A DNA stretch of 64,000 bases from an uncultured Pseudomonadales bacterium (lineage in GTDB: Bacteria; Patescibacteriota; Microgenomatia; UBA1400; PJMF01). The notes below the pieces were generated by a model. It was not told the origin of the DNA. It saw only the letters and a program-made list of their open reading frames with translations, and ran no database searches. The first letter of the stretch is position 1; each line of letters begins with the position of its first letter. Where the stretch lies: assembly GCA_964583795.1 (NCBI GenBank), contig CAZOWX010000002.1:14966-78965 (forward strand), read 5' to 3'. The position numbers and the translations under genes were made by a program. Below are positions 1,078 through 60,455 of the stretch, piece by piece.

Positions 1078-2172
1078 CTAACCAGCCAGCGTATACTTCA
1101 CCCCCTTCGTCACCCCATGCTTCTCAATGATCCCTTTATCCATCAAGTCTTTGAGGTCACGAAGAATCGTATCAACACTCACATTCGGCAAGATCTTAGC
1201 GGCATCTTGGCTCATGATTTCACCCTGTTTTTGTACCAGCTCAAAAAGCATAATCTGACGCTCAGAAAGGGCGATTTGACGCCCTAAGCGGCTTTGCAAC
1301 TGCAAATCTTTGGAAAGCTTCAACACTTGCTGCTTCACTCGATCAAGCTCAATCGCTAAACCATAGCAAAAATACTCCAACCAATACGTCAAGTCATTTT
1401 GCTCATTTTGCTGCACCGACAAAATCGCGTTGTAATACCCTTCAACATCACTATCAAAATATGATTCGAGTGATAAAAAGCGCTTGAAGTCATAGTTCTC
1501 AGCATAGAGCACCAACATTGCAAGCGCTCGTGCCGTTCGGCCATTGCCTTCGATAAATGGGTGGATTCGCACCAATTCATAATGAGTCAGTGCTGCTCGA
1601 AATACCGGGTGAAGTTTCCGACCTTCTTCACTATTTAGCCATTCCAAAAACTCTTCAATTAAAAAGGGGATTTCTACAGAAACTGGAGGACGAAAAGCGA
1701 TTTGGCCGGTTTGGACACTACGAACAACGACTTGTTGTTTGCGATACTGACCAACTTGTTCATCAGTCAAAATTCGCTGCGTGGTAAGCGCATGAAGCGT
1801 TTGCAAAATTTCCTCTGAGTAGACTACTTCTTTACCCACAAAATCTTGCCATTGATCAAGCCACTCCAAAACGCTTCGATAGTTGATCACTTCTTGAACA
1901 TCACGATCTTTTGCCACTATTCCGGAGCGCATTTTGGCCGACTCGACATCACCAATATCATCAAGTCGAACAAGTTGTTCGGTTTGTTCTTGAGTGAGAT
2001 CATTTCCCTCTAAGTGCGTTCCATGAAATACTGTTCGGGCTCTGGCTTCATCTCGAAATTTACTTTCCCAGGCAGGAACAATTGGTGAGTGCTCAATTAG
2101 CGCCTTTGCCGCCTCAATGCGAGAGACGTACAGCAGTAAGTTGTTGGTGATGGTGAACTTGGGTTGAAACAT
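1078..2172 (-). CDS. Fic/Doc family protein (AMPylator-type) with C-terminal HTH-like region
   Basis: Canonical Fic motif HPFIEGNGRTARAL; start chosen at MFQPKFTIT (ATG 2172); track ORF extends to 2187. Confidence 0.8.
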   Translation of the reverse strand: MFQPKFTITNNLLLYVSRIEAAKALIEHSPIVPAWESKFRDEARARTVFHGTHLEGNDLTQEQTEQLVRLDDIGDVESAKMRSGIVAKDRDVQEVINYRSVLEWLDQWQDFVGKEVVYSEEILQTLHALTTQRILTDEQVGQYRKQQVVVRSVQTGQIAFRPPVSVEIPFLIEEFLEWLNSEEGRKLHPVFRAALTHYELVRIHPFIEGNGRTARALAMLVLYAENYDFKRFLSLESYFDSDVEGYYNAILSVQQNEQNDLTYWLEYFCYGLAIELDRVKQQVLKLSKDLQLQSRLGRQIALSERQIMLFELVQKQGEIMSQDAAKILPNVSVDTILRDLKDLMDKGIIEKHGVTKGVKYTLAG

Positions 2173-2391
2173 ATCACACCTCGTCATCCCGATGAAAATC
2201 GGAATCTGATCGAGGAAAACGTTATTCTTTTATTAACAAAGACATGTTGTGTGTGGTTCGGTTGTAGGGTTGTTGCACATGTCTCCACACATAACAACAC
2301 AACGATACAACAACTTAACAACTTCCACAGGATATTGTCGCATATTTTGCAGGAAAAAGGAAGTGGGCCTACACTTTGCACTTAATTGGGA

Positions 2392-5300
2392 TTAAAAACA
2401 CGAACCATAGTGAACTCTTTGGTCTGTATACGAGGTGTAATCTTTTTCTTTCAAAGCATGCCATAATCTCCATACATATTCACCCTGGGTAGGACATTCA
2501 TTCCAAACTCTTCCATATTCATTAAACGAATTATTTCGAACTGCAAAGGCTTTGACAAAATTATCCTCATTGTCATATTGCCCATTTGCCCCAATTGCAT
2601 TGAGCAACCGACAAGCAGCATCAGCTGCAGCATATACGTTTGTTGGGCTACAAGTGGTTTCTGACGCCGGATTACGACAATCAAAGTGGTCTCCATCTTG
2701 CGATACGAAATTTGAAGTTGCCGGTGGTTTTGTATAAAACGCAATTTTCCAAGCATCGTACACCCAATTTAATGCAGTAAATTGCCAAACACCTCGAGCA
2801 GAAGCATAGTTGGGATTCTGATGGTTAGTGTATGATTGGCTCTCACTGTGGGCCGTCGCAATCACCAAATATGGATCACACCCATGCTTCGCTCCCGCCG
2901 CATTAGCAGCATCAACAACAAGCTGAGGCGGAATCGTAAAATTAAGATAGCTATCATTCCAATATTGAATACGAAACTCTTCAAATCCAGTTGCTGGAGC
3001 ACCTAAATCAGTATTCGACGGAATACTATTATCCCCAATTGCCTGCCCTCGGCTCTGGCAGTGCAATAAAAAGTCCTCAGTATTTTTCTTTGGGTCAGTC
3101 ACTGCTCTGGCACACTCCAACAGATTCTGACCAGCCGATGAAACTTGCTGGACTACAGCTCTCGTCGAGTGGTTGAAAATTTTCGCTAGCCAGGGAATTC
3201 TGGCACTAACTTGCGGAGGCTCTTGACTCAGGTAAATCTCATCGCGTACTTCTTTTGGTTGGTACACCACATGCGTCTCTCCATCGACAGTAACTTCAGT
3301 GGGTTCATTGTACCCAACAATGTCCGGGTCACTGGCTAGGGAACTGCCAAAAATAGACTCAAACGTTGTTAAGTAATCACCGTCATCTTGAAACTGCCCT
3401 GATTGCTGCGCTTGTGCAAACAAAGCATCAAACGCTTCTGCCACATACTTGGTGCGAAATCCATGTGGTGTCACATTGTAAATCACAGTTTGTGGCTGAG
3501 GAGTGCGGTTTCCCACCACGCTATTCCCTTTATCTCGGTACTCTTGAATCTTGATCTTGTTTTCTGCACTGCTAATCGGTTTTCCACCTTTCATAGCAGC
3601 CGCTTGATCAGGATCAGTATCGTTGGGCGCGAGTTGAGAACCAATCCGTGAGCCGGACTCAGCGTCTTCTGTTATCGGATGCGTACACGCATCGGTGAGC
3701 TGCGCTTGTGCATACGCGTTGATAAAGTTAATCAAACCTTTTTCAAGTGGGCGGTTGCATTCGGGATCAAAACAGCGAATAACTGGAATTGGTGAAGGAT
3801 CATCACTTGCAGCTTGCAAGTTGGTTCTATTTTGATCCCACACTTTCTTTACATCGAGTTGTACTTGTTGGGGCGTAAAAACATTTACTGTGCGAGTGAT
3901 TACATCATCCACTGCCCCAGGTTCTCCCTCTTTAAAGTCAGTAATGGTATCGGGAACGTGGTACACCAAAAAATCCACAACATGGTCACTTTGCTCGTTA
4001 ATAGCGACACCTGGACGAATTTGCTGGCTAGGATTATCAGGAGAGATCGCGTGTTTGGTCGCATCTTTATCAATTTCAGTCACTAACACCAAAAATGCTG
4101 GCCGATAGGCAGTCTCCTGGTACAAATCCACTCGGGACATCTCGTTTGCAAGTCTTTGCTCTTGTTCGGATGGCGCTTGCCCCTCCTCTTGCGGTTGAAA
4201 CACGTTTTTACAAATATCCGGGTGTGCACTCACTTCACCCGCCAACTGTCCATACGTTTTTTCTGTCCCATAAATTTTACGTGTCGTGAGGGCACAATCA
4301 CCACTTGGGTCAGCTTCTTTGCAAATATCGACCGAAGCCTTGAGCACTTCTTGCTCAGCCAAACACAACGAGTACAAAGAAGATAGCTTGTAAAACGGCC
4401 CCTGGTGAAGACCGTTGATCTCATCTGGCGTTTGATTCAGATACTCCCCTTGTCCTCCTGGAGTATGCAGAGACGGATTGTTCGCACCAAACCACTGTTC
4501 AACCGACTCAAATCGATTGGTGAATTCTCGTTTTTTCTGATCGTTAGTCAAAGAGTAATCGTATGCTCGCCATTTGACCTCATTCTCGTTTCTCAGTACT
4601 CCAAAGATGCGGTTGACACCAGTGCTAGAAACACCAAATGTGGCACTTGGTTCAAACAAACAGGCAGTAGAATCAATGGCGTTTCGACAACTTTCTCGTT
4701 GATAAAAAATCAATCGCTCGATCGTCCCGGAACCACCATTTCTCGTTTGATAATCCGCTGGATTCGAACACGTCATCGAGTAATCACTGAGCAACTTGTT
4801 GGTAATATCATCTGCACTCGAGCTAACCGAGTAAAACGGATAAATAAAACGCTTGTAGTAATCGCCAGCTGGGGGAAGTCCGGTATGCCCAGTACTTTTG
4901 TCACACGTTGCCGGATCGATCTCATTTCCTTGCGCGTCGTAAATTTTCCCGTTGATGTAATACAGCCAGGAATCACTGGCACTGTCACATTTATTGGGGA
5001 CCAAGGTCGTAGCAATCTTCCCATCAGGAGGAGTGTGTGATTTGTAAAAAGTCAGATGCTGTTGCAGCGATTTCGCTGGATCTGGACCATACTCAGTGAA
5101 CGCCGCCACATTGGCGCCATTGTTTGGGTAATTTTTATAGCTATCCAACCCACTGGTTCCTAATTCATACACATTCGCAACAACGGTGCCTCCATAAACC
5201 CCAGACTCTGTTATGAACGTCGAAAAATCAGGATAGACACTATTATACATATCGAGCGGAGCTGGCACCGGAGTGTATTTGGCAGTTGCAGCCGCATTTT

Positions 5301-5814
5301 TGAAAGTGGTGAAAAACCCACCATACTCTCTCGCTGCGGTTGTCGTCTGATCGGGACAAGCAGTTGAACACAACTTCCACTCTTTATCGAGGTTGTTCAC
5401 TTCATTGCCAAATACAACCAAAGTCCCTGGTTTAATGGCTGAATTATTGAGCTTTTCAGCAATTGCGGAAGCAGTACCACTGTTTAAACTCGCATTGTGA
5501 TCGACACCGACAATGCGCACAATCTTGGTTAGCCCATCTGAAGCATTTAAGACGCTATTAATTTGATCTGCGGTATCATTGATACCTATCATCACAGTAA
5601 TAGTCGTACCACCTTTATTTTTGACCAACTCGGCAATTTTGATGTTATTGCCGTAGTCAAAAAACCCCGCATGTGTCCCTATTGCAGTGTTTGAACTCGA
5701 GGTATTTTGTTGGGCATTGGAAAAAAGCGGAAAACCCAGCGAACCAACAACTCTCACCACAGCCACAACTCCCAGAAGTACCACTAACGCAGTAATCAAA
5801 CCGTTTCTCCGCAT
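2392..5814 (-). CDS. Large secreted/membrane-anchored multidomain protein; C-terminus possibly lytic transglycosylase (SLT)/lysozyme-like
   Basis: Long ORF; N-terminal signal/TM MRRNGLITALVVLLGVVAVV; C-terminal ATAHSESQ...ARGVWQF...YAAADAA resembles SLT motifs ES / GLMQ / AYNAG. The track ORF start (5970) runs through a heptamer DNA repeat, so start set at ATG 5814 (alternative 5883). Confidence 0.5.
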   Translation of the reverse strand: MRRNGLITALVVLLGVVAVVRVVGSLGFPLFSNAQQNTSSSNTAIGTHAGFFDYGNNIKIAELVKNKGGTTITVMIGINDTADQINSVLNASDGLTKIVRIVGVDHNASLNSGTASAIAEKLNNSAIKPGTLVVFGNEVNNLDKEWKLCSTACPDQTTTAAREYGGFFTTFKNAAATAKYTPVPAPLDMYNSVYPDFSTFITESGVYGGTVVANVYELGTSGLDSYKNYPNNGANVAAFTEYGPDPAKSLQQHLTFYKSHTPPDGKIATTLVPNKCDSASDSWLYYINGKIYDAQGNEIDPATCDKSTGHTGLPPAGDYYKRFIYPFYSVSSSADDITNKLLSDYSMTCSNPADYQTRNGGSGTIERLIFYQRESCRNAIDSTACLFEPSATFGVSSTGVNRIFGVLRNENEVKWRAYDYSLTNDQKKREFTNRFESVEQWFGANNPSLHTPGGQGEYLNQTPDEINGLHQGPFYKLSSLYSLCLAEQEVLKASVDICKEADPSGDCALTTRKIYGTEKTYGQLAGEVSAHPDICKNVFQPQEEGQAPSEQEQRLANEMSRVDLYQETAYRPAFLVLVTEIDKDATKHAISPDNPSQQIRPGVAINEQSDHVVDFLVYHVPDTITDFKEGEPGAVDDVITRTVNVFTPQQVQLDVKKVWDQNRTNLQAASDDPSPIPVIRCFDPECNRPLEKGLINFINAYAQAQLTDACTHPITEDAESGSRIGSQLAPNDTDPDQAAAMKGGKPISSAENKIKIQEYRDKGNSVVGNRTPQPQTVIYNVTPHGFRTKYVAEAFDALFAQAQQSGQFQDDGDYLTTFESIFGSSLASDPDIVGYNEPTEVTVDGETHVVYQPKEVRDEIYLSQEPPQVSARIPWLAKIFNHSTRAVVQQVSSAGQNLLECARAVTDPKKNTEDFLLHCQSRGQAIGDNSIPSNTDLGAPATGFEEFRIQYWNDSYLNFTIPPQLVVDAANAAGAKHGCDPYLVIATAHSESQSYTNHQNPNYASARGVWQFTALNWVYDAWKIAFYTKPPATSNFVSQDGDHFDCRNPASETTCSPTNVYAAADAACRLLNAIGANGQYDNEDNFVKAFAVRNNSFNEYGRVWNECPTQGEYVWRLWHALKEKDYTSYTDQRVHYGSCF

Positions 5815-5941: not shown

Positions 5942-6391
5942 CTAACACACCCCACCGAAACAGATGTCAAAGATTTTGATGGTACTTACTCCAGTAAATC
6001 TGGCAATGAAGTCTAATATAATCCAAGAACTTAGTGAGACAATCAACCCAATAATGGCATACGTCAAAGTGTTTTTCCCGCCTTCCACTCCTTTTGAGTT
6101 GCCTCCGGAGAGTAAATACTGGAACGAACCAACGATCATCATCACAAATCCAGCAAATCCAATCCCACTGATCGCCACGGCCAAAACATTTCCCACTATT
6201 CCCTCGATAGCATGGATGGTAAGGACTCCACCTTCGTCTACACCTTGAGTTTCAGGATTATCAACGCTCACATACCCCTTGTTCGGGTCATCAAGTGGTT
6301 TTATTTGTTGGGCATTTGCTTGAGTCGGGGCACCAACAACGAACACCATCATCCCTACAATGAGCACAAGTTTGTATATCGATTTGAACAT
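5942..6391 (-). CDS. VirB2/TrbC-like pilin family protein (paralog 1 of 7)
   Basis: Signal peptide plus two hydrophobic helices around a GG...GGNSKGVEGGK loop; same architecture and motifs as the six tandem genes at 9444-11860. Confidence 0.5.
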   Translation of the reverse strand: MFKSIYKLVLIVGMMVFVVGAPTQANAQQIKPLDDPNKGYVSVDNPETQGVDEGGVLTIHAIEGIVGNVLAVAISGIGFAGFVMMIVGSFQYLLSGGNSKGVEGGKNTLTYAIIGLIVSLSSWIILDFIARFTGVSTIKIFDICFGGVC

Positions 6392-6446
6392 AATGGAATT
6401 ATAATACACAAAAGCCTTGAAGCGAAATACCCCTCTTTAAAAAAGC

Positions 6447-7664
6447 ATGACCCCTACACAAATTCACCATATATTGCCATTTTTGAAAGGACTGAAGTCC
6501 GATCGTGTATTTATTAAATCATTTATTTTTTTTGTGTTGCTCAACACGGGAATTTATCTCAATATAGTAACCTTCCATTCAATTATTCCTCATGGAGATT
6601 CTACAGCTCAAATGCATCACTTTTTACTTGACTACAGAGCTACGCACACACCATTTAGCCTACTACGATCACTTAATCAAACAGATGCCCAATGGTACAT
6701 AGGCATTGCTACTCATGGATATCCAACTCCCCCTAATAATATTTACGACTTCACAGACACAAGCAAATTTAGCAGTTTGGCATTCGCTTTTTTTCCAGTT
6801 TTCCCGCTTCTGATCGCTCTCGTTAACTTAGCGGTACATAACATAGAGCTCTCTGCTTTTATCTTGAATAGTCTCTTTTTGATTGCTGGTTTTGTGAGTC
6901 TTTATGGATTGATTCGAACATTTGGATACAGCGCAATAATCAGCGCAAAAACCTGTCTGTTTTTCTTCTTTTATCCTTTTTCATTTTATTTTCGAAGTTA
7001 CTTTACTGAACCGCTCTTCTTATTACTGCTCATTTGGTTCTACTATTTTTTTACTCAAAAAAAATATATCTTCGCAGCCGTTTTGCTATCGGTGCTAACC
7101 GTAACGAGAGGATCAATCATACTTTTTTTACCGTTTTTCTGGTTACTCACTTTTCAGGACACTGAAAATCTCATGAAGTCACTGGCAATTGTCACGGTTA
7201 CAGTATTACCACTGGGAGCGTGGTCAATCTTTAACTTTGCTCAAACGGGTGATCCACTGTACTTTTTACATATCAGAGATTTGTGGATTCCCTCAGATAT
7301 TCCTTTTCGAAGTTCGATTATTTTTAATATCGCGGTTATCGCAAGTTTTTTTGACTTTCCCATCTTGTTCAGTACATTTAATAAAACGGATATTTTACTC
7401 ATCTTTGCATATGGGTTCCTACTATTAAAGTCCAGAGAAGTAGCTTCAAAAAAAATCTGGATCTCTAATATTTTTCTTTGGCTCTCACCACTCATTTTTG
7501 CCAGTACGATGTCTTTTAACCGTTATTTGTCAGTCATCTTCCAACCATATCTTTATATCGTCAAAAAATTTCCAGACTGGCTATTGAGTCTTACTTTTGT
7601 TTTACAATATATCATTCTCAATATTTTTGTTTTGTTCTTTATTAATGGACATTGGATTGGATAA
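6447..7664 (+). CDS. Polytopic membrane protein, possible GT-C fold glycosyltransferase (ArnT/PMT-like)
   Basis: 405 aa, about 10 predicted TM helices, F/L/I/Y rich, AT-rich gene; family assignment tentative. Confidence 0.35.
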   Translation: MTPTQIHHILPFLKGLKSDRVFIKSFIFFVLLNTGIYLNIVTFHSIIPHGDSTAQMHHFLLDYRATHTPFSLLRSLNQTDAQWYIGIATHGYPTPPNNIYDFTDTSKFSSLAFAFFPVFPLLIALVNLAVHNIELSAFILNSLFLIAGFVSLYGLIRTFGYSAIISAKTCLFFFFYPFSFYFRSYFTEPLFLLLLIWFYYFFTQKKYIFAAVLLSVLTVTRGSIILFLPFFWLLTFQDTENLMKSLAIVTVTVLPLGAWSIFNFAQTGDPLYFLHIRDLWIPSDIPFRSSIIFNIAVIASFFDFPILFSTFNKTDILLIFAYGFLLLKSREVASKKIWISNIFLWLSPLIFASTMSFNRYLSVIFQPYLYIVKKFPDWLLSLTFVLQYIILNIFVLFFINGHWIG

Positions 7665-9265
7665 TTATGAATTATTTTCAAAAATTAGCGCTAATAATCC
7701 TCAATCACATCCATGAGAGCTTTTCTCAAATGTGGTTTGACTTCTCAAAAACCAGGATTTTTTGTTTCGGAATTGATTTCTTACCCGTTTGGATTTTACT
7801 CTTCAATCTTATTTTTCACTTGCTCATTACCATTAACATTGCCAGTCTCAACTATGATGAGTTTATTTTACTTTCCATTAGCAAACAACCCACGCACGAG
7901 TTCTTTAACACCATACAAGCTGAGCCACATCCTCTAGGATTCTACTTATTATTGCGATTGTTTCAACTCACTCACTTCAGCACATCACAAATAAGAATTA
8001 TCCTTACTGCGTTTTTTCACAGCGTGTTACTGTTTACAACAATTTTCGCCTACAAATCAAAACTCATTGAAAAATTCAATGCAAAGCTTGGTCTTTCCTT
8101 AGTTTTTACTTCGTTTGTCATCTTTCAGGTTGGTATACAAGTTAAACAAGACGTCGTTTCATTTCCTCTCTTTTTCGTGTTTTTTGTCTCCTCATTTTGT
8201 TTGGCTTTTCTGAAAACAAGACATCCACAGGTACTCAAAAGTGTCTCTTTTTTCTCAGTTACTTTGCTTTTATTTTTTAGTTATATCTACTTATTATTCT
8301 CAAGCATTACCATACTATTGTTCCTAGTTTTTGCAATGAAAAAAAAGGCCGCTAATGGAACGTTTTTTTTCTGTACACTCATTGTTTTAACAATAAGTTC
8401 ATTGTTCTATTTTTATGCTTACGGTCATTATCAGATTGAAAATAATTACTTGCAAAAAAATCGATTTTTGTGGACACAAACAGTTCCTAATAGTTTTATA
8501 GCAGGAATTCCTGGTTCAATCGCAGGAGCGCAACTTGACGGCCCTATCGGAGATGCTTTTACGATCATCTTTATTGTCTTGTTTTTTACTGCAATCAAGC
8601 AAAATCGGAAATCATCAGAAACTGCACACAGATGGGTTTTGGCAGCCTTTCTCATTTTTCTCTTGACGACCTCGTTTTCACGATTGTTTGTTCAGGACCG
8701 ATACAGTGTCCCAGTATTTATGGTGTTTATGTTTATTTGTGGATCAGTGGTCGGGATTAAGTTACGTCAATCATTGATCTGGATACTTCTTTTCGTGCTT
8801 TACATTCGTTCGGCAACTGTTATTTTATCAGCTTCAGATAACACTCGTTCGTTTGAAACACTTGCACGTGTTTTATCAGAAGTATCTCAAAATCAAAAAA
8901 CAGGGTTACTGTCTAACTTGCCCGGCGGAGGTTTATATCTCAAAGTTCGATTTGCACCAAAACTACCGCAGATTATTCCACTTAGCACTTCAAAAAACTC
9001 GGCACTCATCCCAAAACCAATATTTAATCATCAATATTTAAGCGAGTCAGCTGAAAGCATAGAAAAAACCAGTTCTGACCTCCAGGCTGACTTTCGATCG
9101 CTTCAATTTTCTCAGTTTGTGCTAGTTGACTCATACAGCAGTGCCTACAGCTTTTATGACCCTGAACACCGAACTAAATCTGCTCTCGCTAGTATGTGTA
9201 CTAAAAACGATGAACTCGTCCAGTTTAATTCAGTTGACGTAGTTTTGTTTTCTGATTGTCAATAA
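7652..9265 (+). CDS. Polytopic membrane protein, possible GT-C glycosyltransferase with C-terminal soluble domain
   Basis: 537 aa; multiple TM helices in N-terminal two thirds; overlaps upstream gene by 13 nt (likely operon). Confidence 0.35.
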   Translation: MDWIIMNYFQKLALIILNHIHESFSQMWFDFSKTRIFCFGIDFLPVWILLFNLIFHLLITINIASLNYDEFILLSISKQPTHEFFNTIQAEPHPLGFYLLLRLFQLTHFSTSQIRIILTAFFHSVLLFTTIFAYKSKLIEKFNAKLGLSLVFTSFVIFQVGIQVKQDVVSFPLFFVFFVSSFCLAFLKTRHPQVLKSVSFFSVTLLLFFSYIYLLFSSITILLFLVFAMKKKAANGTFFFCTLIVLTISSLFYFYAYGHYQIENNYLQKNRFLWTQTVPNSFIAGIPGSIAGAQLDGPIGDAFTIIFIVLFFTAIKQNRKSSETAHRWVLAAFLIFLLTTSFSRLFVQDRYSVPVFMVFMFICGSVVGIKLRQSLIWILLFVLYIRSATVILSASDNTRSFETLARVLSEVSQNQKTGLLSNLPGGGLYLKVRFAPKLPQIIPLSTSKNSALIPKPIFNHQYLSESAESIEKTSSDLQADFRSLQFSQFVLVDSYSSAYSFYDPEHRTKSALASMCTKNDELVQFNSVDVVLFSDCQ

Positions 9266-9395
9266 GCTCATTGTTAAAGCAAATAAAGTTGATACAGTTT
9301 CACTGCATAAACAGAGCTGCATAGTGTCTATGATAGGCATTATTAAACTGTTCAATTTATCTAATACTTCTTAAAAAGATCTACCATGTAAACAA

Positions 9396-9424
9396 AAACC
9401 CCCTCTTTTGAGGGGGTTGGATTT
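9396..9424 (-). terminator. Rho-independent terminator downstream of pilin gene 9444..9845
   Basis: Minus-strand hairpin ccccctcaaaagaggggg followed by a T-run (plus strand aaaaaccccctcttttgagggggtt). Confidence 0.6.
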
Positions 9425-9443
9425 CAAAATCGAACAGAAAAAC

Positions 9444-9845
9444 TTATTCAAACGCCTTTGGTATAGCAAAGTTGCCTTTAAATGGATCGTCCACACCCAA
9501 GAAAGAGATCACCAACAAGAAGATTGCATACGAGGCAGCAACCACAGCTAAACCAATTACTGCAGCAGTGATTTTATTTCTTGCCTCTTCAGTCTTGCCT
9601 TTATCGCCGCCTGAAGTAATCCATTGAATTCCACCCCAAACCAAGTAAGCAAATACGAGCAAAGCAGCGACAAACATCACCATATTGAGTAAACCGGTAA
9701 TCAATTTTCCAAAATCCTGAATCTTAAAACCACCTTTACTTAAATCAATTGAAATTGACTCAACTTGTGCAAAAGCTGTAGTAACAGCAGTCAAACTGCT
9801 AGCAGCCACCGAAGTCAGGGCGATTACTTTTTTGGGCAAATTCAT
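9444..9845 (-). CDS. VirB2/TrbC-like pilin family protein (paralog 2)
   Basis: Signal peptide; LVWGGIQWITSGGDKGKTEEARNKITAAVIGLAVV motif shared by all paralogs. Confidence 0.55.
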   Translation of the reverse strand: MNLPKKVIALTSVAASSLTAVTTAFAQVESISIDLSKGGFKIQDFGKLITGLLNMVMFVAALLVFAYLVWGGIQWITSGGDKGKTEEARNKITAAVIGLAVVAASYAIFLLVISFLGVDDPFKGNFAIPKAFE

Positions 9846-9952
9846 ATATACCTTTCATTCACCATGTTTATGGATAAACGATTATTGTAAATATCTGAGC
9901 TTCTCTAGCTTATATTTTACCCTGTACGACTTCAAGAGTCAAATTGAACAAA

Positions 9953-10330
9953 CTATTCTTCAGGGATACAAAGAGCGCCCCTACAGTTAGGTGGTGCAAC
10001 ACGAGTCGCAGGCGCATTCACAACATTAATCCCCAAAAAAGTCTGAAGTATCATGAAAATAGCCCCGACGCTTGCCAAAACAGCTAAGCCAATCATGGCG
10101 TGGGTAATTTTCTTACGAGCTGACTCCACCTTTCCAGTGTCACCTTGAGACATGATCCAATCAACTGCGCCCCATAGCATGTAAAAGAACGCCAAAATAG
10201 CAGCAAAAACCAGCAGACCTCGCATGAATCCCTCGACCGTCGGTCCAAATTGATTTAATGGCGAAATCTCTCCCACTCTACTTTCAATGTTAATCGTCGC
10301 TGGCGATTGTAAGAGCATTTGAAAAAACAT
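9953..10330 (-). CDS. VirB2/TrbC-like pilin family protein (paralog 3)
   Basis: MLWGAVDWIMSQGDTGKVESARKKITHAMIGLAVLASV; same family motif. Confidence 0.55.
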   Translation of the reverse strand: MFFQMLLQSPATINIESRVGEISPLNQFGPTVEGFMRGLLVFAAILAFFYMLWGAVDWIMSQGDTGKVESARKKITHAMIGLAVLASVGAIFMILQTFLGINVVNAPATRVAPPNCRGALCIPEE

Positions 10331-10345
10331 AAAAGACTCTCTTTG

Positions 10346-10702
10346 TTAACAGGTGATACCTGGTCCTGGGATACAAATATTGAGTAAATTCAGCCCAAAC
10401 AACGAACCAACTAGCTGAACAATTGCCACGGAAGCGGCAAGAATCGCCAATCCCACCACAGCTCCAGTCATTTTCTTGCGTGCCGAAGAAACTTTCCCCT
10501 CTTCCCCGCCGGCCATAATCCAATCAAGAGCCCCCCAAAGTAAAAACAAAAGGGCGACCAAATTTCCTACCATGATCAATGCTCGCCATAGCAAAACAAT
10601 ATAGTTTGTCAAAGCAGCTGTTCCATCTCCGGCTCTACCTCCGTACCCAGGCGTCAAAACCGGATTATGAATTTGAGTAAGTAGTGTCAATAAAGGTAAC
10701 AT
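10346..10702 (-). CDS. VirB2/TrbC-like pilin family protein (paralog 4)
   Basis: LWGALDWIMAGGEEGKVSSARKKMTGAVVGLAIL; start set at ATG 10702 (MLPLLTLL), 3 nt after the upstream gene's stop. Confidence 0.5.
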   Translation of the reverse strand: MLPLLTLLTQIHNPVLTPGYGGRAGDGTAALTNYIVLLWRALIMVGNLVALLFLLWGALDWIMAGGEEGKVSSARKKMTGAVVGLAILAASVAIVQLVGSLFGLNLLNICIPGPGITC

Positions 10703-10704
10703 CG

Positions 10705-11130
10705 TTACTCCACAATAACAGGGGCCCCACCCACACCAGGACATCCTGACACAGGGTTTAATATACTTAACATATTGCCAGGATTAAGAATATCCAAACC
10801 GACAACTGTTCCCACGACAGCAATTACGCCATAGGCCACAATGACAATGATTAAACCGATTGCTCCATTCGTCATTTGCTTCTTCGCGCTATCAACCTTT
10901 CCACTATCGCCACCAGCCAACGCCCACTGCAACCCACCAAACACAAAGTAAAGCAAGAACGCTAGTCCCGCAATCACTGTCAAAAATCCAATAATTAAGG
11001 AAATAATATCATTAAAGTTTGTCAATGCCTTGGTGCCACACTCACCAACAGTAGCATCGGTTTTAAAAAATCCAGAGCCGGGCACTTTAAACCCATCTCC
11101 AAACTGTGCTATTAAGTTAAGTATCATCAT
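10705..11130 (-). CDS. VirB2/TrbC-like pilin family protein (paralog 5)
   Basis: FGGLQWALAGGDSGKVDSAKKQMTNGAIGLIIVIV. Confidence 0.55.
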   Translation of the reverse strand: MMILNLIAQFGDGFKVPGSGFFKTDATVGECGTKALTNFNDIISLIIGFLTVIAGLAFLLYFVFGGLQWALAGGDSGKVDSAKKQMTNGAIGLIIVIVAYGVIAVVGTVVGLDILNPGNMLSILNPVSGCPGVGGAPVIVE

Positions 11131-11142
11131 ACGATAATAGTG

Positions 11143-11514
11143 CTATACCCCAGTGAGTTTGGGGTTGAGTATGTAAGTCGCATCACCAAAGAAAATCAAA
11201 CCAATAATCGCTGCAATCGTAAAGGCACTCACAATAATTAGCAGCCCAATCAAGCTCATGTAAATACTTTGCCAGGCGGTTTCCACAGCCTTAACATCAT
11301 TTGAGGAAGTAATGTACTTAAAGCCAGCGAGTACCAAGTTAAAAAGTGCCCAAATGCCCGCAATGACAGTAATCAGCTTAATCATATTTGAAGCAAAAAT
11401 AATGATCCCAATTTCACCCGGCGCTACTAAACCTTGATACTTTGCAACTCCCGGAGGAGGACTAATTTTCCCCCAAGGAGATGCTTGCGCTAGTAGTGTC
11501 GAAAACAAAGTCAT
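11143..11514 (-). CDS. VirB2/TrbC-like pilin family protein (paralog 6, divergent)
   Basis: Two-TM architecture with ...KYITSSNDVKAVETAWQSIYMSLIGLLIIV. Confidence 0.45.
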   Translation of the reverse strand: MTLFSTLLAQASPWGKISPPPGVAKYQGLVAPGEIGIIIFASNMIKLITVIAGIWALFNLVLAGFKYITSSNDVKAVETAWQSIYMSLIGLLIIVSAFTIAAIIGLIFFGDATYILNPKLTGV

Positions 11515-11527
11515 ACGCTGATTCGAT

Positions 11528-11860
11528 TTACCCGATAATTGTTACCCCTGTAATAAATTCCACTATCTGTATAATCCAGTATGCACTAAACATTACCAAA
11601 AAACCAATGATCGCTGAGGTGATTTTCTTTTTTCCTTCTTCCACCCCTTTTGATGAATCTGATGCAATTATACTCAATCCACCCAAAATCAACAAGAAAA
11701 GCAAAAAAATTCCTGCAAACACAAATAAGTTGGTAACCACCAAATTGACCAAGTCAGACAAGCTTTTGTATTTTTCTCCAACTGTTTTACAGTTACCGGC
11801 AGCATCACATCCCAAGACAATTGACTTTTCCAGATCAATTTGAGCGAGTAAGTGTAACAT
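11528..11860 (-). CDS. VirB2/TrbC-like pilin family protein (paralog 7)
   Basis: GGLSIIASDSSKGVEEGKKKITSAIIGFLVMF. Confidence 0.5.
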   Translation of the reverse strand: MLHLLAQIDLEKSIVLGCDAAGNCKTVGEKYKSLSDLVNLVVTNLFVFAGIFLLFLLILGGLSIIASDSSKGVEEGKKKITSAIIGFLVMFSAYWIIQIVEFITGVTIIG

Positions 11861-12054
11861 CGGTCACCTTTATAAAGCTGTTATTATTATACTACAAGCA
11901 AGGCTTCCTGTCTGGCAAGCAGTGAAGTTTTCCACTTGAGGAAAAAGCTGCTTAGCTTTTTAAGCATCAAAGTCCCATGCCGCTACTTCGAACGAATCAC
12001 TCTTGAGGAGACTTGCGCCACCCACCATTGAGTGTATATAATTCTTCCTCACCT

Positions 12055-12606
12055 ATGAAACAATCTGTTATCGACCAAGACACTGCCTTGATTTCTGATC
12101 TAAAGTCGGGCATACCAGAAGCAGTCGAGGTGTGGTACCGCAAGTACCTCAGAACCGTTCAAGCTTTTATCAATACTAAAGTCGACAATAAAAAAGATGT
12201 CGAAGAAATTACTCGTGAAACTTTTTTAAACTGTCTTCGGGATTTGCCACTTTTTCTGGGAAAATCATCACTCAAAACCTGGATGTTTCGTATCGCCTCA
12301 CATGAAGTTGCTGACTATTATCGGCGTCGTTATGCAAAAAAATTTATTCATGCAATCCCTTTGTCCACATATCTTTTTCATGAAGAACCAAAGCGCATGC
12401 ACGAGACTTCCTCTTACGTAGTCGAGGTTCTCAAGCGCATGCGCAATGAGTACAAGCAATTAATTATTCTGAAATATGTTGATAACTTGTCTGTCAAAGA
12501 AATCGCTCTAAAAGTGAATAGATCAATTAAATCGGTCGAGTCAGATCTGTTTCGCGCTAGAAAGGAGTTTCGAGTACTATATCAAACTGTTAGCGCAAAC
12601 AGGTAA
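12055..12606 (+). CDS. ECF-type sigma-70 family RNA polymerase sigma factor
   Basis: Region 2-like EITRETFLNCLRDLPLF...WMFRIASHEVADYYRRR and region 4-like LSVKEIALKVNRSIKSVESDLFRARKEF; divergent from the pilin array; track start 12013, ATG MKQSV at 12055 preferred. Confidence 0.7.
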   Translation: MKQSVIDQDTALISDLKSGIPEAVEVWYRKYLRTVQAFINTKVDNKKDVEEITRETFLNCLRDLPLFLGKSSLKTWMFRIASHEVADYYRRRYAKKFIHAIPLSTYLFHEEPKRMHETSSYVVEVLKRMRNEYKQLIILKYVDNLSVKEIALKVNRSIKSVESDLFRARKEFRVLYQTVSANR

Positions 12607-13059: not shown

Positions 13060-13371
13060 ATGGATAAAAGAACATTACTTACTTCAACTTTTTACAGCAT
13101 CTTGCAAGCTTCGAGTGGTTTAATTCTCCATCCGTATCAGACCATGCAACATTTGGTTGAAGACAGGATTTTTCTATGGCTGACGTTTTTACCGATCTAT
13201 CTGGGGATATTGTTTTATAGCACTTGGTGGTTTTCATTACAGTTTTTATTCCGCTACTTACCGTATCTGGGAGCTTGGGCTTTCTCGCTGATTTGGGGAA
13301 GTAGCTTTTTACTTTTCTGGCAAATTTTGCTGCTCTATTTATTTTTGCGGTTTTTCATGACGCTGCGATAA
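13060..13371 (+). CDS. Small integral membrane protein (hypothetical)
   Basis: 103 aa, three hydrophobic segments. Confidence 0.3.
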   Translation: MDKRTLLTSTFYSILQASSGLILHPYQTMQHLVEDRIFLWLTFLPIYLGILFYSTWWFSLQFLFRYLPYLGAWAFSLIWGSSFLLFWQILLLYLFLRFFMTLR

Positions 13372-14790: not shown

Positions 14791-14831
14791 CTTTGCATGA
14801 TTTTGATCCATTTTTGCGACTATGTGAGTGT

Positions 14832-16019
14832 ATGGTTGACTCTACGATTCAACTCCACAATGCTCCTGGTGACACAGCAGAGCAACAATTTCACCACCGC
14901 CAAAATCTAGTCAGACAAGGGTGGGATGATGTTGCGCTGGATTCACTGCTGCAAACTCGACTCGATATCGATCAAGTTAGCACAAAAAATTGTGAGAATA
15001 TGATCGGCAGTGTTGAAGTCCCGGTAGGACTTGCTGGGCCAAGTACAGTTCAACTCGACAATCAAACAATGGAACTATGGATCCCCCTTGCCACCACAGA
15101 AGGCGCACTCGTGGCGAGTGTCAGTCGTGGAATGAAGTTACTCAGCCAAGCAGGAACAACAACAGTCATCACGCAAAAAAAAGGCATGTCACGTGCTCCA
15201 GTTTTTGAGTGCACCAATGGCAAAATAGCCCAAGAGTTTGCTGCGTGGTTGGACACTCAAACCCAGTTTTTTGCGCAGCAAGCAAGAGAGTCATCTTCAC
15301 ATCTCACTTATCTGAATCACACCGCGTTTATTCAAGGTCGAAGCGTCTTTGTCCGGTTTCACTTTGACACGAGTGAGGCCATGGGAATGAACATGATTAC
15401 GATTGCTCTGGAAAAAATCATCGGAAAGTTATTCAGCACTTTTTCTGGAGTAAAACTACTGAGCATCTCTGGCAACGTCTGTACTGACAAAAAGCCTGCA
15501 CATATTAACACGATCTTCGGACGCGGGTGGTGGGTGCAAGCGGAAAGTTTTATTCCCAAAGAGTTGATTGAACGATCACTGCACTCTGACGTGGAAACAA
15601 TTTTAAAAGTTCACACGCAAAAAAACCTCGTTGGCGGTCATATTGCTGGATCTTTGGGTCAAAACGCACATATCGCCAACGTTGCCGCAGCGTTTTATCT
15701 GGCAACGGGCCAAGATCTCGCACACACCGTCAACGCAAGTTTGGGATCAACCACAATTGAATCGACCGCTGACGGGATCTACTGTGCGGTGACTTTACCG
15801 GAAGTTGATGTGGGAAGTGTTGGTGGTGGAACAGTGCTTCAGCCGCAATCACAAGCACGACAACTGATTTGCCAAGATAAAAATGTTGCGGTAAACTCGC
15901 AACTCTTAGCCGTCACGCTCAGCGTCGGTTGCTTAGCCGCAGAATTGTCACTACTTGGAGCGCTAGCAGCAAAACATTTGGGGCGCGCTCACAATCAACT
16001 GGGCAGGGGAATCAAATGA
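14832..16019 (+). CDS. mvaA: Hydroxymethylglutaryl-CoA reductase
   Basis: ENMIGSVEVPVGLAGP, EAMGMNM and GGT motifs; track ORF starts at TTG 14793, first ATG at 14832. Confidence 0.8.
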   Translation: MVDSTIQLHNAPGDTAEQQFHHRQNLVRQGWDDVALDSLLQTRLDIDQVSTKNCENMIGSVEVPVGLAGPSTVQLDNQTMELWIPLATTEGALVASVSRGMKLLSQAGTTTVITQKKGMSRAPVFECTNGKIAQEFAAWLDTQTQFFAQQARESSSHLTYLNHTAFIQGRSVFVRFHFDTSEAMGMNMITIALEKIIGKLFSTFSGVKLLSISGNVCTDKKPAHINTIFGRGWWVQAESFIPKELIERSLHSDVETILKVHTQKNLVGGHIAGSLGQNAHIANVAAAFYLATGQDLAHTVNASLGSTTIESTADGIYCAVTLPEVDVGSVGGGTVLQPQSQARQLICQDKNVAVNSQLLAVTLSVGCLAAELSLLGALAAKHLGRAHNQLGRGIK

Positions 16020-17059
16020 AATTTAGCAAACCAATTGGCATTGTTTCGTATGGAGTCGCACTTCCGACTCTCTGCATTCAGACACATGAAATTGAAAAAG
16101 CCAACAATGCTCACGGAGTTGCGGCATCGCTTGGAATTAAGTCAAAAACCGTTCCCGATAAAGATGAAGATACTGTGACGTTAAGCACTCGGGCCCTTTT
16201 TCAAGCGCTTGAGCGCACTTCTCCAGAAATCAAAGACGAAATTGGAGCACTCTTTATCGGCAGTGAAAGTCACCCGTATGCCGTAAAACCCAGTGGTAGT
16301 ATTGTGGCAAATGCATTGGGTTTGAATCCAAAGTTGTCACTGGCTGATCTACAATTCGCGTGTAAAGCCGGCACCCAATCACTACAAATCACCTTTAGTT
16401 ATCTTGAGGCTGGATTAACCCAATCTGCTGTGGCCATTGGCGCGGATACCGCCCAAGGAGCACCGGGAGATGCATTAGAGTACAGTGCAGCCGCTGGAGC
16501 AGCTGCTTTTATTTTGGGAACTGAGAATGTACTGGCAAAAGTGATCGCCTCGACCTCTATTGCAACAGACACTCCAGATTTTTGGCGTCGTCCCAAACAA
16601 AGTTATCCAAAACATGCCGGTCGATTTTCCGGTGAACCGGCGTACATGACTCATATTATTGATAACACTCATCAGATTCTTGATGAAGTGAATATGGATA
16701 TTAAAGACTTTGACTTGATTGTATTTCACACTCCCAATAAAAAATTCCCTCAAGCTGTAGCCAAAACACTCAATTGCACCAAAGAGCAACTGCAACATAG
16801 TTTAATTGTAGAAACGGTTGGCAATACCTATGCTGCGGCCAGTTTGATTGCTTTCGCAAACGTACTTGATCACGCGGGTGCAAATCAAAAGATTTTGGTC
16901 GTCTCATACGGATCGGGTTCTGGATCAGACGCATTTGTATTTGAAACCACAAATCATTTACCAAAGTCGCGAAAAAATTGGACGTCGCTCGTTTCAGATC
17001 AAATTGCAGCGCTTAAACCAATAGAATATCACCAGTACTTACAGCATTTGCATCATTAG
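16016..17059 (+). CDS. mvaS: Hydroxymethylglutaryl-CoA synthase
   Basis: ATGA overlap with mvaA stop; MKFSKPIGIVSYGVALP...; HMGCS/KAS III-like thiolase fold with active-site Cys region. Confidence 0.75.
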   Translation: MKFSKPIGIVSYGVALPTLCIQTHEIEKANNAHGVAASLGIKSKTVPDKDEDTVTLSTRALFQALERTSPEIKDEIGALFIGSESHPYAVKPSGSIVANALGLNPKLSLADLQFACKAGTQSLQITFSYLEAGLTQSAVAIGADTAQGAPGDALEYSAAAGAAAFILGTENVLAKVIASTSIATDTPDFWRRPKQSYPKHAGRFSGEPAYMTHIIDNTHQILDEVNMDIKDFDLIVFHTPNKKFPQAVAKTLNCTKEQLQHSLIVETVGNTYAAASLIAFANVLDHAGANQKILVVSYGSGSGSDAFVFETTNHLPKSRKNWTSLVSDQIAALKPIEYHQYLQHLHH

Positions 17060-17061
17060 CT

Positions 17062-18174
17062 ATGACAATCTCTATCATCGGCTCTAGCATTACTCAATTT
17101 GGCGAACTGTGGGATAAATCCCTAATTGATTTAGCCAAACAAGCAGTTGATGAATCACTCACTGATGCGAAGTTAGAACACGCTGACATTGAAGCAGTAT
17201 TTGTGGCCAACATGAGCAGCCACGTCTTCGATGGCCAGGCACAACTCGGGGCTTTGGTTTCACAATTCTTTCCCCACTACCCAAGTGCTTTTCACTCTGA
17301 AGCATCGTGTGCTTCTGGAAGTATGGCTCTCTTGAGTGCTCAGTATGCACTGCTTTCTGGTCGCTATACAACGGTGATGGTTGTCGGAGTAGAAAAAATG
17401 ACCGATGCTCCAAGCAGTGATGTCACTCAGATGCTGTCCGGTGCGGCAAAAAAATCAGAAGAAGAGGGGAGTACTTTTCCTGCCCTGTATGCTCTACTCG
17501 CGCAAATTCATATGAGCGAGTTTGGTACTTCACGCGAGATGTTAAGTGCTGTCGCTGTGCAAAATCATGAGCATGCATTTCAGAATCCTCATGCTCAATA
17601 CCATAAACACTTAACACAAGAGATTGTTTCCAATAGCACACTCGTTGCACCACCACTACGGTTGCTTGACTGCTCGCCTATTACTGATGGTGCTTCAGCA
17701 CTCATTCTTACCACCAAACCGGTAAAAAATGCAGTTCAAATCTTGGGCCGAGGTCATGGTCAGGACTCTCTTGATTTGGCATCTCGGGAAAAACTAACTA
17801 CATTGCAAGCCACAGTTCGAGCCAGTCGCGAAGCATTTTCTGAAGCGAAGCTCGATCATAAAAAAATTCAAGTCATTGAAGTGCACGATTGTTTTACCAT
17901 TGCCCAACTGTTGGCACTCGAAGATTTGGGATTTTATGAAAAAGGCAAAGCCGGAATCGCTACACTCAGTGGAAAAACCACTTTTGGTGGAGAGATCGTC
18001 GTTAATCCTTCCGGAGGATTAAAGGCCAGTGGTCATCCGGTTGGCGCCACTGGTGTGAAACAAGTTGCCTATTTAACAAAATTAATACAGCAAGATCAGT
18101 TTCCGCTCGCTCTCGCCCATAATGTGGGTGGTAGCGGAGCAACCGCAATTGTGCACATCATTGGAAAGGTGTAA
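17062..18174 (+). CDS. Thiolase (archaeal-type acetyl-CoA acetyltransferase)
   Basis: EASCASGSMALLSAQYALLSG...VVGVEKMTDAP; C-terminal GHPVGATG; in archaea forms a complex with HMGCS and DUF35. Confidence 0.75.
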   Translation: MTISIIGSSITQFGELWDKSLIDLAKQAVDESLTDAKLEHADIEAVFVANMSSHVFDGQAQLGALVSQFFPHYPSAFHSEASCASGSMALLSAQYALLSGRYTTVMVVGVEKMTDAPSSDVTQMLSGAAKKSEEEGSTFPALYALLAQIHMSEFGTSREMLSAVAVQNHEHAFQNPHAQYHKHLTQEIVSNSTLVAPPLRLLDCSPITDGASALILTTKPVKNAVQILGRGHGQDSLDLASREKLTTLQATVRASREAFSEAKLDHKKIQVIEVHDCFTIAQLLALEDLGFYEKGKAGIATLSGKTTFGGEIVVNPSGGLKASGHPVGATGVKQVAYLTKLIQQDQFPLALAHNVGGSGATAIVHIIGKV

Positions 18175-18176
18175 CT

Positions 18177-18464
18177 ATGTATCCCTCACAGTACTGGCGC
18201 GAAAGCAAAAAATGGGCGTCTCTGATTGGTCAAAAAGGCAAAGTGTTGGCTGTCACTACGGTTCACACACCTCCTCCTGAATACGAGCAATACTCTCCGT
18301 ATAACCTAGCTTTAGTTGAATTTAGCAATTTTCGCAAGCTGCTTCCCGTTCCTCCAGCGTACGAACTCTCAATGGGGCAAACAGTTGAAGTGGTGCTACG
18401 AAAAGGCGGCACAACCTCGGATGATGAAATCATTGCGTATCAATTAAAAGTTATTCCTGCCTAA
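18177..18464 (+). CDS. DUF35-like OB-fold protein (thiolase/HMGCS scaffold)
   Basis: 95 aa directly after the thiolase; OB-fold-like sequence with no Zn-ribbon cysteines; assignment by synteny and size. Confidence 0.45.
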   Translation: MYPSQYWRESKKWASLIGQKGKVLAVTTVHTPPPEYEQYSPYNLALVEFSNFRKLLPVPPAYELSMGQTVEVVLRKGGTTSDDEIIAYQLKVIPA

Positions 18465-18469
18465 ACTTC

Positions 18470-20954: not shown

Positions 20955-21100
20955 AAAAATAAATTACTTTAAATAATAGAGTCAGATCCTCGATCTCGAT
21001 GGCTTCACTTGGTACGTCCAGGGCGAACCAGGTTCACTCATCGGGTCAAACCTACCTCGCTGGTAGACAGGTATGACAACGTTGAAGGAGCCACATACAC

Positions 21101-22081: not shown

Positions 22082-22088
22082 AAAAAAC

Positions 22089-22634: not shown

Positions 22635-22657
22635 AATCTTTTTACTTTCATAAATAC

Positions 22658-26184: not shown

Positions 26185-26274
26185 ACTGCTCCTTGAAAAA
26201 TTCATCACTATTTTTTTATCGATCTCACTCTATCAAAAAAAAAGACGTGTGGAAAGCGGGAATTTGATTTTAGT

Positions 26275-26312
26275 TAACAGTAAACAGTGAATAGTTAATA
26301 GTGGGCCGTCAA
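26275..26312 (-). promoter_or_regulatory. Conserved upstream motif (copy 3, minus orientation) 5' of the DsbA-like gene
   Basis: Reverse complement cccactattaactattcactgtttactgttaac. Confidence 0.45.
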
Positions 26313-26394
26313 AGAGTTTTTCTAGTAGCTAGTTGAGAGCAAAGAATGTTTAGCTTCGTCACCATTGTCGATAGCAGTTCTGAGTACTATTTTA

Positions 26395-60422: not shown

Positions 60423-60455
60423 TGTTGTTCTTTACATACTCATGTCAAAACAAAG

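Follow-up and report, generated by a model that had tools for sequence, protein, structure and literature searches.

Seven pilin-like genes in conserved order form a detached array beside an ECF-type sigma factor gene in a Patescibacteria genome

Why should one bacterium encode seven different versions of what appears to be the same small membrane protein? The question is raised by contig CAZOWX010000002.1, of which we analysed a 64-kb stretch (the window), and in which seven pilin-like genes run divergently from the gene for an extracytoplasmic function (ECF)-type sigma factor. The original prediction for this locus took the seven for paralogous pilins of VirB2/TrbC type, expanded for antigenic or functional diversification of a surface filament. 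The nearest relatives of the genes are found in metagenome contigs and metagenome-assembled genomes labelled 'Patescibacteria group bacterium'. Patescibacteria, which grow attached to host bacteria, account for a large part of the bacterial diversity that has not been cultured. We read the seven genes, with a probability of roughly 0.7, as the pilin-like (VirB2-analogous) module of a monoderm-type type IV secretion system (T4SS) of the Patescibacteria (candidate phyla radiation, CPR), detached from the virB4/prgI cluster and lying beside a divergent ECF-type sigma gene. VirB2-like pilin arrays are already known in Patescibacteria, and the present locus is an ordinary instance of them. Our additions are modest, namely positional orthology, linkage to a sigma gene, a bimodal leader and a hydrolase-like partner.

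All seven of the predicted open reading frames (ORFs) are present, all on the minus strand, and specify products of 110-149 aa. We name them W1 to W7 in transcription order and list them with their scores for the Pfam family PF18895 (T4SS_pilin) and, for some, with the expectation value (E) given by a family hidden Markov model (HMM) that combines the seven window proteins with ~120 database homologues (127 members).

11528-11860, minus strand: W1 pilin-like gene, 110 aa; PF18895 28.3 bits; family HMM E = 3.5e-25
11143-11514, minus strand: W2 pilin-like gene, 123 aa; PF18895 28.5 bits
10705-11130, minus strand: W3 pilin-like gene, 141 aa; PF18895 35.5 bits
10346-10702, minus strand: W4 pilin-like gene, 118 aa; PF18895 22.4 bits; family HMM E = 2.8e-41
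9953-10330, minus strand: W5 pilin-like gene, 125 aa; PF18895 22.7 bits; family HMM E = 1e-31
9444-9845, minus strand: W6 pilin-like gene, 133 aa; PF18895 34 bits
5942-6391, minus strand: W7 pilin-like gene, 149 aa from ATG 6391; PF18895 35.3 bits

The start of W4 at 10702 is consistent with its orthologues and with the gene call in the related locus L001. The intergenic gaps from W1 through to W6 measure 13, 12, 2, 15 and 107 nt, so that the tight tandem packing described earlier holds, with a shortest gap of 2 nt in place of the 3 nt quoted. W7 is split from W6 by two polytopic membrane-protein genes on the opposite strand.

When searched with pilin profiles, as the original prediction had proposed, all seven products match PF18895 and none falls into an unrelated small-membrane-protein family. 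The PF18895 gathering score of 26.6 bits is exceeded by five of the seven (28.3-35.5 bits). W4 and W5 lie below it (22.4-22.7 bits) and have orthologues in other genomes that are annotated as PF18895, and the family is matched by all 114 aligned homologues. The family HMM gives all seven E = 1e-25 to 1e-46 and the next-best ORF of the window E = 0.095; the pilin-like count is therefore exactly seven, with no eighth copy in the window. For the seven proteins an NCBIfam scan returned sub-threshold matches alone, to the 'pilin-like conjugal transfer protein' of a Mycoplasma integrative and conjugative element. Within this family the seven are very dissimilar in sequence. The motif W..GG..W..GGD.GK…A(R/K)KK(I/M)T.A.IGL, previously ascribed to every member, is complete in W3-W6 (four of seven) and degenerate in W1, W2 and W7, and the invariant column across the seven-paralogue alignment is one Gly. 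The locus observation is nonetheless real, far beyond chance.

The fold is as anticipated. The hydropathy pattern, with its two hydrophobic helices, is alike in 7/7 proteins, and the AlphaFold2 model of W3 (built from the 114-sequence alignment) is a helical hairpin, with helices at residues 33-71 and 76-110 joined by a short polar loop. The helices are predicted with high confidence (predicted local distance difference test, pLDDT, 90-96), and the N- and C-terminal tails with low confidence. Each protein contains either no cysteine or two, and all of them are confined to the tails, clear of the hydrophobic core. In W3 the N-terminal and the C-terminal tail have one cysteine each, a pair kept in its orthologues; W4 has a C-terminal C-x7-C, and W5 and W7 have a C-terminal C-x4-C. 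This placement is compatible with both termini lying outside (N-out/C-out) and the basic loop facing the cytoplasm. Elsewhere in the window, on the minus strand, are genes for a DsbA-like thioredoxin-fold protein (25279-26208) and a thioredoxin-reductase-like flavoprotein (within 25279-27432), a pairing that is consistent with disulfides in the pilin tails and in a Cys-rich giant protein encoded next to W7.

The relation of the array to a T4SS can be judged from the remainder of the window and from related loci. Relatives were found with an alignment of W7 orthologues, leading to 80 metagenome and 7 genome loci that were fetched (identified below by L numbers where necessary), and the pilin ORFs of 30 loci drawn from these were classified into subfamilies. 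The window itself contains a T4SS cluster, composed as follows.

57046-63771, minus strand: T4SS cluster beside dnaA, with Pfam matches to TraG P-loop/AAA_10, PrgI and Peptidase_M23
57046-58929, minus strand: VirB4-like ATPase
59121-60422, minus strand: 433-aa soluble protein with a Pro/Thr/Ala-rich C-terminal half of ~200 residues; no family match
60456-61553, minus strand: PrgI/VirB3-like protein
62803-63771, minus strand: M23 peptidase
within 57046-63771, minus strand: 329-aa protein, unassigned

The VirB4-like gene does lie ~45 kb from the array beside oriC, as had been noted: it adjoins dnaA (55147-56664) and dnaN, and the GC-skew minimum is at ~52-54 kb. T4SS genes near dnaA have been noted in Patescibacteria before (PMC12102498). 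The 433-aa protein, positioned between the PrgI-like and VirB4-like genes, may be the equivalent of the TrsD-type component that has been reported for Patescibacteria. The family HMM identifies no pilin gene within the window's T4SS cluster, and no relaxase was seen among the window genes scanned; most of the surveyed Patescibacteria T4SS clusters likewise have none (PMC12102498).

Physical linkage of PF18895 genes to a T4SS is provided by other lineages. In L050/51, L057, L060, L068 and L070 a four-gene array stands directly upstream of prgI-virB4, usually with dnaA nearby, and in L073 one pilin ORF at the contig edge has the same position before prgI-virB4. Members of the four-gene arrays that were classified (L050, L057, L060 and L070) resemble W6 and W7. 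The longer arrays, of 6-9 genes with W1-W4 types among them, are detached and have an ECF-type sigma gene divergent from the first pilin gene (~15 distinct loci), and no locus combines the virB4-adjacent with the sigma-linked detached arrangement. The divergent sigma gene is thus a recurrent partner of detached arrays. Overall, PF18895 genes co-occur with VirB4 and VirB3/PrgI genes, in the same window here and by direct adjacency in other loci.

The N-termini of the proteins are less uniform than their cores. The claim that all seven have a signal peptide does not hold: a canonical n-h-c Sec signal peptide is present only in W6 (…TAFA↓QVE) and W7 (…QANA↓QQI), the arrow marking the leader junction. 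W1-W5 begin instead with hydrophobic leaders of 6-11 residues, as follows.

W1: MLHLLA↓Q
W2: MTLFSTLLA↓Q
W3: MMILNLIA↓Q
W4: MLPLLTLLT↓Q
W5: MFFQMLLQSPA

These five cannot be extended upstream, because there is a stop codon or no start codon available there; in W1 a TGA stop lies immediately 5' of the ATG. The Ala at the junction is kept in 103 of 114 family members (~90%), and 64 have Gln at +1. Leader length among the 103 Ala-junction members is bimodal, 5-12 residues in 78 of them and 17-38 in 25, and Lys or Arg occurs in 23 of 24 leaders of at least 18 residues vs 20 of 78 short leaders. One subfamily contains both leader types, …AHAA↓ITNTAVPGG and MQYLAQ↓ITNTAVPGG. The Ala↓Gln junction is the putative cleavage site.

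How close, then, are these proteins to VirB2? Like Agrobacterium VirB2 and RP4 TrbC they are small, have a leader ending in Ala↓Gln, two hydrophobic helices and a short basic loop, and are associated in the genome with VirB3/VirB4 homologues; all eight of the real VirB2/TrbC proteins compared have the A-x-A↓Q junction. They differ from VirB2/TrbC in that most family members carry a 5-12-residue leader where VirB2/TrbC have a signal peptide of 40-50 residues, seven distinct subunits take the place of one major pilin, the host is monoderm, the tails contain predicted disulfide pairs, and no significant Pfam, profile-profile or fold match connects the two groups. Head-to-tail cyclisation is known for canonical conjugative pilins. 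The VirB2/TrbC-like assignment thus stands at the level of PF18895 and fails as strict membership of TrbC/VirB2 (PF04956), for which the best match in the window has E = 0.96 and 10 bits against a cutoff of 27.9. Across the family, weak matches to TrbC occur in 7 of 114 members (best 5.8e-4) and weak matches to CagC in 4 of 114. Since significant similarity to VirB2 is lacking, we file the genes under PF18895, as VirB2-analogous and not as demonstrated VirB2 homologues.

A number of observations weigh against a pilin module. The 114-member profile gave no relevant match when compared with all PDB chain sequences. Foldseek of the pilin model against the PDB gave a best E of 2, to generic helical hairpins, with the A. 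pernix pilin at 4.9, and comparison by hhalign with the eight genuine VirB2/TrbC proteins, which came from annotated plasmids, yielded E = 0.35 and a probability of 0.2%. The two-helix hairpin is a generic fold, and to our knowledge no filament has been seen for this family. Five of the seven proteins are without a canonical signal peptide. The array is 45 kb from virB4 here, so the T4SS link depends on other lineages. Its promoter has a TATAAT box of sigma-A type, which leaves a role for the ECF sigma factor hypothetical. Finally, a pilus is not normally part of a monoderm T4SS, and systems of the monoderm mating-pair-formation class FATA (MPF-FATA) are without pili (PMC12102498).

Several of these points would equally suit proteins that are not filament subunits at all. 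They would instead stay in the membrane, as components of a T4SS channel or stalk or as chaperone-like helpers of the giant enzyme, and 'pilin' would name a generic hairpin. The lack of a significant match to canonical VirB2 and to solved pilins, the pilus-less MPF-FATA systems (PMC12102498), the five proteins without a canonical signal peptide, the sub-threshold NCBIfam matches and the constant pairing of W7 with the giant protein all lean in that direction. We nevertheless judge this alternative unlikely. The VirB2 architecture is matched point by point, from the Ala↓Gln leader through a short ectodomain, first transmembrane helix (TM1), basic loop and second transmembrane helix (TM2) to a short tail. 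The cross-matches to TrbC (7/114) and CagC (4/114) are weak, but they point towards pilins, and homologue P0070, within the family that gives these cross-matches, bears both Pfam assignments. Seven co-expressed small hairpins, one of them with a strong promoter of its own, also suit a polymer better than a fixed channel.

The reading of the genes as a pilin-like module of a T4SS leaves the question of why there are seven. The same locus is found in three other genomes, L010 (a Logan contig), L011 (a JGI contig) and L003 (JBDTME010000002.1), each with the order divergent sigma gene, exactly seven pilin genes, ~1,150-aa protein and Fic protein. In an all-against-all comparison, orthologues at the same position in these genomes are 49-76% identical (W1 54-58%, W2 72-76%, W4 64-70%, W5 49-56%, W7 53-71%), as against 11-36% for genes at any other position; the paralogues share 14-36% with one another. 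The TM core of W7 is near-invariant among orthologues, and the W6 loop WGGIQWITSGGDKGKTEEARNKITAA is almost invariant, with one substitution across the 4 genomes. Beyond these genomes, the subfamily order W1-W2-W3-(W4)-(W5/W6)-W6-W7 recurs in ~15 additional distinct loci, in which differences in array size stem from duplication of W1-, W2- or W6-type members. Contigs of the same species carry the same genes, with at least W6 and W7 identical at the protein level. The seven window copies share no DNA-level repeats. Neither mark of a recent amplification, that is paralogues closer to one another than to orthologues or concerted evolution, was found. Positional orthology, recurrent order and the lack of repeats therefore indicate a set that is old and fixed, not a recent variable expansion. 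This argues for the seven being old, order-conserved, specialised and non-redundant subunits.

It has been proposed, by contrast, that such genes are alternative versions of one surface pilin, amplified for antigenic or host-range variation. This was the expectation of the original prediction, and antigenic variation or host-range adaptation has also been suggested for arrays of this kind in a survey that applied PF18895 and related profiles to 3,035 Patescibacteria genomes (Quiñonero-Coronel et al. 2025, PMC12102498). It recorded 441 VirB2-like arrays, each with 2-11 genes and spread over 383 assemblies; mean identity was ~25%, and abundance was greatest in Microgenomatia and Saccharimonadia. 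The paralogues of our locus are indeed highly diverged, more so in the tails than in the core, and lineages differ in the size of their arrays, from 4 to 11 genes. Exposed tails also evolve faster than the core between orthologues: identity is 63-88% in the TM core, 34-58% in the N-terminal tail and 22-57% in the C-terminal tail, measured at the amino-acid level because synonymous sites are saturated at 49-76% orthologue identity. The precedents cited in the same survey are the Bartonella Trw and Anaplasma VirB2 paralogues (PMC12102498). However, each paralogue of the window has its same-position orthologue at 49-76% identity in three other genomes, and the subfamily order is kept in the ~15 further loci. 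The high divergence attributed to the mature N-terminal regions is true between paralogues and untrue between orthologues, with ectodomain motifs such as WG.I.PPPGV..YQ in W2 and I.NPVL..GYGG in W4 conserved from genome to genome. There are no DNA repeats able to support gene conversion, leader type and promoter differ among the members in a way that points to different roles, and the pilin series of Southlakia is reported to be essential (PMC10633639). These observations speak against an expansion for antigenic diversification, which we consider quite unlikely. That the genes are chance ORFs or decayed copies with one functional member can be dismissed: two copies do score just under the Pfam gathering threshold, but all seven ORFs are intact, have intact positional orthologues at 49-76% identity and are recovered by the family HMM at E <= 1e-25.

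Comparison with described systems places the array in context. Arrays of this kind have been treated as VirB2-like pilins in three publications (PMC12102498, PMC10633639, PMC12857230), and Southlakia epibionticum ML1 has, within its T4SS cluster, a series of six pilin genes that is essential (Wang et al. 2023, PMC10633639; PMC12857230). The window array is like the published Patescibacteria arrays in its PF18895 membership, its tandem make-up of 2-11 divergent genes at ~25% mean identity and the presence of a monoderm-type T4SS (VirB4, PrgI/VirB3) near dnaA. It is unlike them in lying 45 kb from virB4 with a divergent ECF-type sigma gene alongside, and in being interrupted by two membrane-protein genes and followed by a lineage-restricted giant protein with a glycoside-hydrolase-like barrel. 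The published reading is antigenic variation or host range, whereas orthology here favours fixed, non-redundant subunits. With Bartonella Trw (TrwL) and Anaplasma the locus shares the presence of several tandem VirB2-type genes per genome, with exposed parts more variable than the core. Those amplifications are cited for diversifying selection and concerted evolution (PMC12102498) and are lineage-specific, unlike the present paralogues, which are ancient, have positional orthologues and are not linked by DNA repeats.

The transcription signals around the array are also conserved, and they divide it into units. The elements concerned, together with the sigma gene and the ORFs behind it, are as follows.

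11886-11895, minus strand: -10 element GTAGTATAAT of the W1-W5(-W6) operon promoter; invariant in 4 genomes and a promoter-scan match
9914-9942, minus strand: internal sigma-70-type promoter TTGACT-17-TAAAAT upstream of W6; 10/12 consensus positions
9397-9418, minus strand: strong intrinsic terminator after W6 (AACCCCCTC-AAAA-GAGGGGGTT, then a T-run); 9-bp stem with 6 GC pairs
12013-12606, plus strand: divergent ECF-type sigma factor; likely start ATG 12055, 183 aa
12684-12989 and 13060-13371, plus strand: two small membrane-protein ORFs 3' of the sigma gene, with 1 and 2-3 hydrophobic segments

The intergenic region around GTAGTATAAT is otherwise diverged between the 4 genomes, and the W6 promoter is invariant in the same four as TTGAC[TA]CTTGAA-N11-TAAAAT. 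TATAAT boxes precede the first pilin gene in most related loci. In L006 and L016-L022 the box often ends 7-9 nt before the first pilin ATG, a spacing that suggests leaderless or near-leaderless mRNAs in those loci. W1 of the window lies 25 nt from its box and has an AAGGTGA Shine-Dalgarno sequence.

The predicted divergent ECF sigma factor is borne out. The gene encodes a two-domain protein with regions 2 and 4 only (Sigma70_r2, 39.1 bits; Sigma70_r4_2, 44.1 bits) and scores 58.6 against a cutoff of 42.9 for TIGR02937, and an ECF-type sigma gene is divergent from the first pilin gene in ~15 distinct related loci. Its recurrent synteny with the array suggests that the sigma factor may control the pilin genes. 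No ECF-type promoter motif was found upstream of the array, the conserved element there being TATAAT-like. The survey of Patescibacteria arrays makes no mention of a sigma factor, signal peptides or leaders (PMC12102498). The two small ORFs downstream of the sigma gene have no family match and no recognisable anti-sigma domain; relatives have a 74-aa ORF at their position, and it is possible that the products are anti-sigma partners. Several loci contain a further pair of ORFs with a pilin domain 3-5 kb beyond the sigma gene, for which the window has no equivalent.

L006, 1163-2940: extra pilin-domain ORF pair
L016, 2785-4579: extra pilin-domain ORF pair
L017, 760-2474: extra pilin-domain ORF pair
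L018, 1-1556: extra pilin-domain ORF pair
L045, 786-1543: extra pilin-domain ORF pair

The first ORF of these pairs is long (~400 aa) with a pilin-like domain in most of the loci, L045 being the exception.

On its other side the array is bordered by genes of quite different character.

2392-5811, minus strand: giant surface protein, 1,139 aa from MRRNG; the ORF extends to TTG 5970
6447-7664 and 7652-9265, plus strand: two polytopic membrane-protein genes (405 and 537 aa), with at least 8 and at least 10 hydrophobic segments

The giant gene lies directly 3' of the last pilin gene wherever it was detected among the fetched loci (L003, L004, L010, L011 and L017). Its product has an N-terminal membrane anchor and many invariant cysteines. 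A search of 5.8 billion clusters yielded just 17 homologues, all of them lacking a Pfam domain. AlphaFold2 predicts a confident β/α domain at residues ~45-300 (pLDDT 80-94), for which Foldseek places the GH5 mannanases 1wky and 3jug and GH26 lichenases on top (E = 4e-5 to 1e-3). Gly135-Asn136 is invariant and Glu137 is present in at least 90% of sequences; Thr239-Glu240-x-Gly242 (TEYG) is also invariant. Neither Pfam nor a profile search against PDB sequences produced a family match for this domain at the sequence level. From the model, the N-terminal domain is probably a clan GH-A-like triosephosphate isomerase (TIM) barrel, and the protein a predicted surface glycoside hydrolase that would work with the pilin module. 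A VirB1-type SLT domain (PF01464) at the C-terminus was considered and rejected, with E = 0.047, 13.7 bits against a cutoff of 21.3, pLDDT <50 and a null result for the profile against the PDB.

The two membrane-protein genes between W6 and W7 have no Pfam or profile match; by eye, their products resemble GT-C-type glycosyltransferases. They are absent from L010 and L003, where the seven pilin genes are uninterrupted, while L011 has one such gene and the window two. From their absence in L010 and L003 we take them to be later insertions and not part of the system.

Further afield, a Fic/DOC protein with a C-terminal DeoR-like helix-turn-helix domain (1078-2187, minus strand) is encoded in the window, and the Fic gene is directly 3' of the giant gene in L003, L004, L010 and L011. 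Fic domains serve as T4SS effectors in Bartonella; the adjacency here may simply be conserved gene order. On the plus strand at 14793-23898 is an apparently complete mevalonate operon (HMG-CoA reductase, HMG-CoA synthase, thiolase, GHMP kinases and diphosphomevalonate decarboxylase), which also holds three NUDIX genes and a gene for undecaprenyl-diphosphate synthase; mevalonate-operon genes flank the array in L010 and L003 too. Across the 64-kb window ARAGORN detected no tRNA gene, and no Rfam family reached its gathering threshold. Three of the fetched contigs, L004 (CAYOQI010000005.1), L005 (CAZHLX010000029.1) and L006 (CAZWKL010000006.1), are titled 'uncultured Pseudomonadales bacterium' yet contain Patescibacteria-type pilin arrays, in L004 with the giant-protein and Fic genes, and in L006 with a divergently placed sigma gene and, behind the last pilin gene, an ORF of ~1,150 aa. 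Their Pseudomonadales labels are probably wrong.

Taken together, a pilin-like module might work in the following way. Each protein would be a two-helix membrane hairpin whose tails, with their paired cysteines, face outside, and whose short basic loop (GGD.GK…A.KK) is cytoplasmic and would become the lumen of the filament. There would be seven ancient subunit types in fixed order, of which W1-W5, tightly packed and with short leaders, would be expressed from one shared TATAAT promoter. On the strength of its full signal peptide, a conserved promoter of its own and a terminator, W6 is likely to be the major subunit. W7, also with a full signal peptide, is followed by the ~1,150-aa surface protein with its glycoside-hydrolase-like barrel. 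The subunits would accumulate in the membrane, be extracted by the VirB4-type machine and be built into a heteromeric filament or stalk, which would pass through the wall and touch the host bacterium. Such an arrangement would be akin to a major pilin with a set of minor pilins, and the giant protein may act on wall or host polysaccharide.

A functional analogy, and nothing closer, is offered by pilin and pseudopilin operons of the GspG-H-I-J-K type, which encode small, distantly related subunits in conserved order that are inserted into the membrane before assembly. In type IV pili and type II secretion systems, as in the array, one subunit is presumably abundant and the others are specialised. 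Those systems differ in having an N-terminal helix with a globular head, a G↓F prepilin-peptidase motif and another family of ATPase. More speculatively, the separate features of the locus might be joined into an obligate seven-type heteromeric T4SS filament or stalk, with its detached array under a dedicated ECF-sigma circuit and with an undescribed form of export and processing for most subunits, in which a 5-12-residue hydrophobic L-[LI]-A↓Q leader replaces the Sec signal peptide and retains the VirB2-like Ala↓Gln junction. We put this forward tentatively, as a combination that we would not bet on as a whole. The last subunit may partner the lineage-specific giant glycoside hydrolase, acting on the wall of the host or of the cell itself.

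In the one species tested, Southlakia, the T4SS and its pilin series are essential. If the seven genes do represent old, order-conserved subunit types, the working model for such arrays would no longer be a variable surface antigen but a defined structure of several subunits. The sigma gene alongside, the Ala↓Gln junction behind short leaders and the giant partner protein would then provide handles on regulation, processing and host contact.

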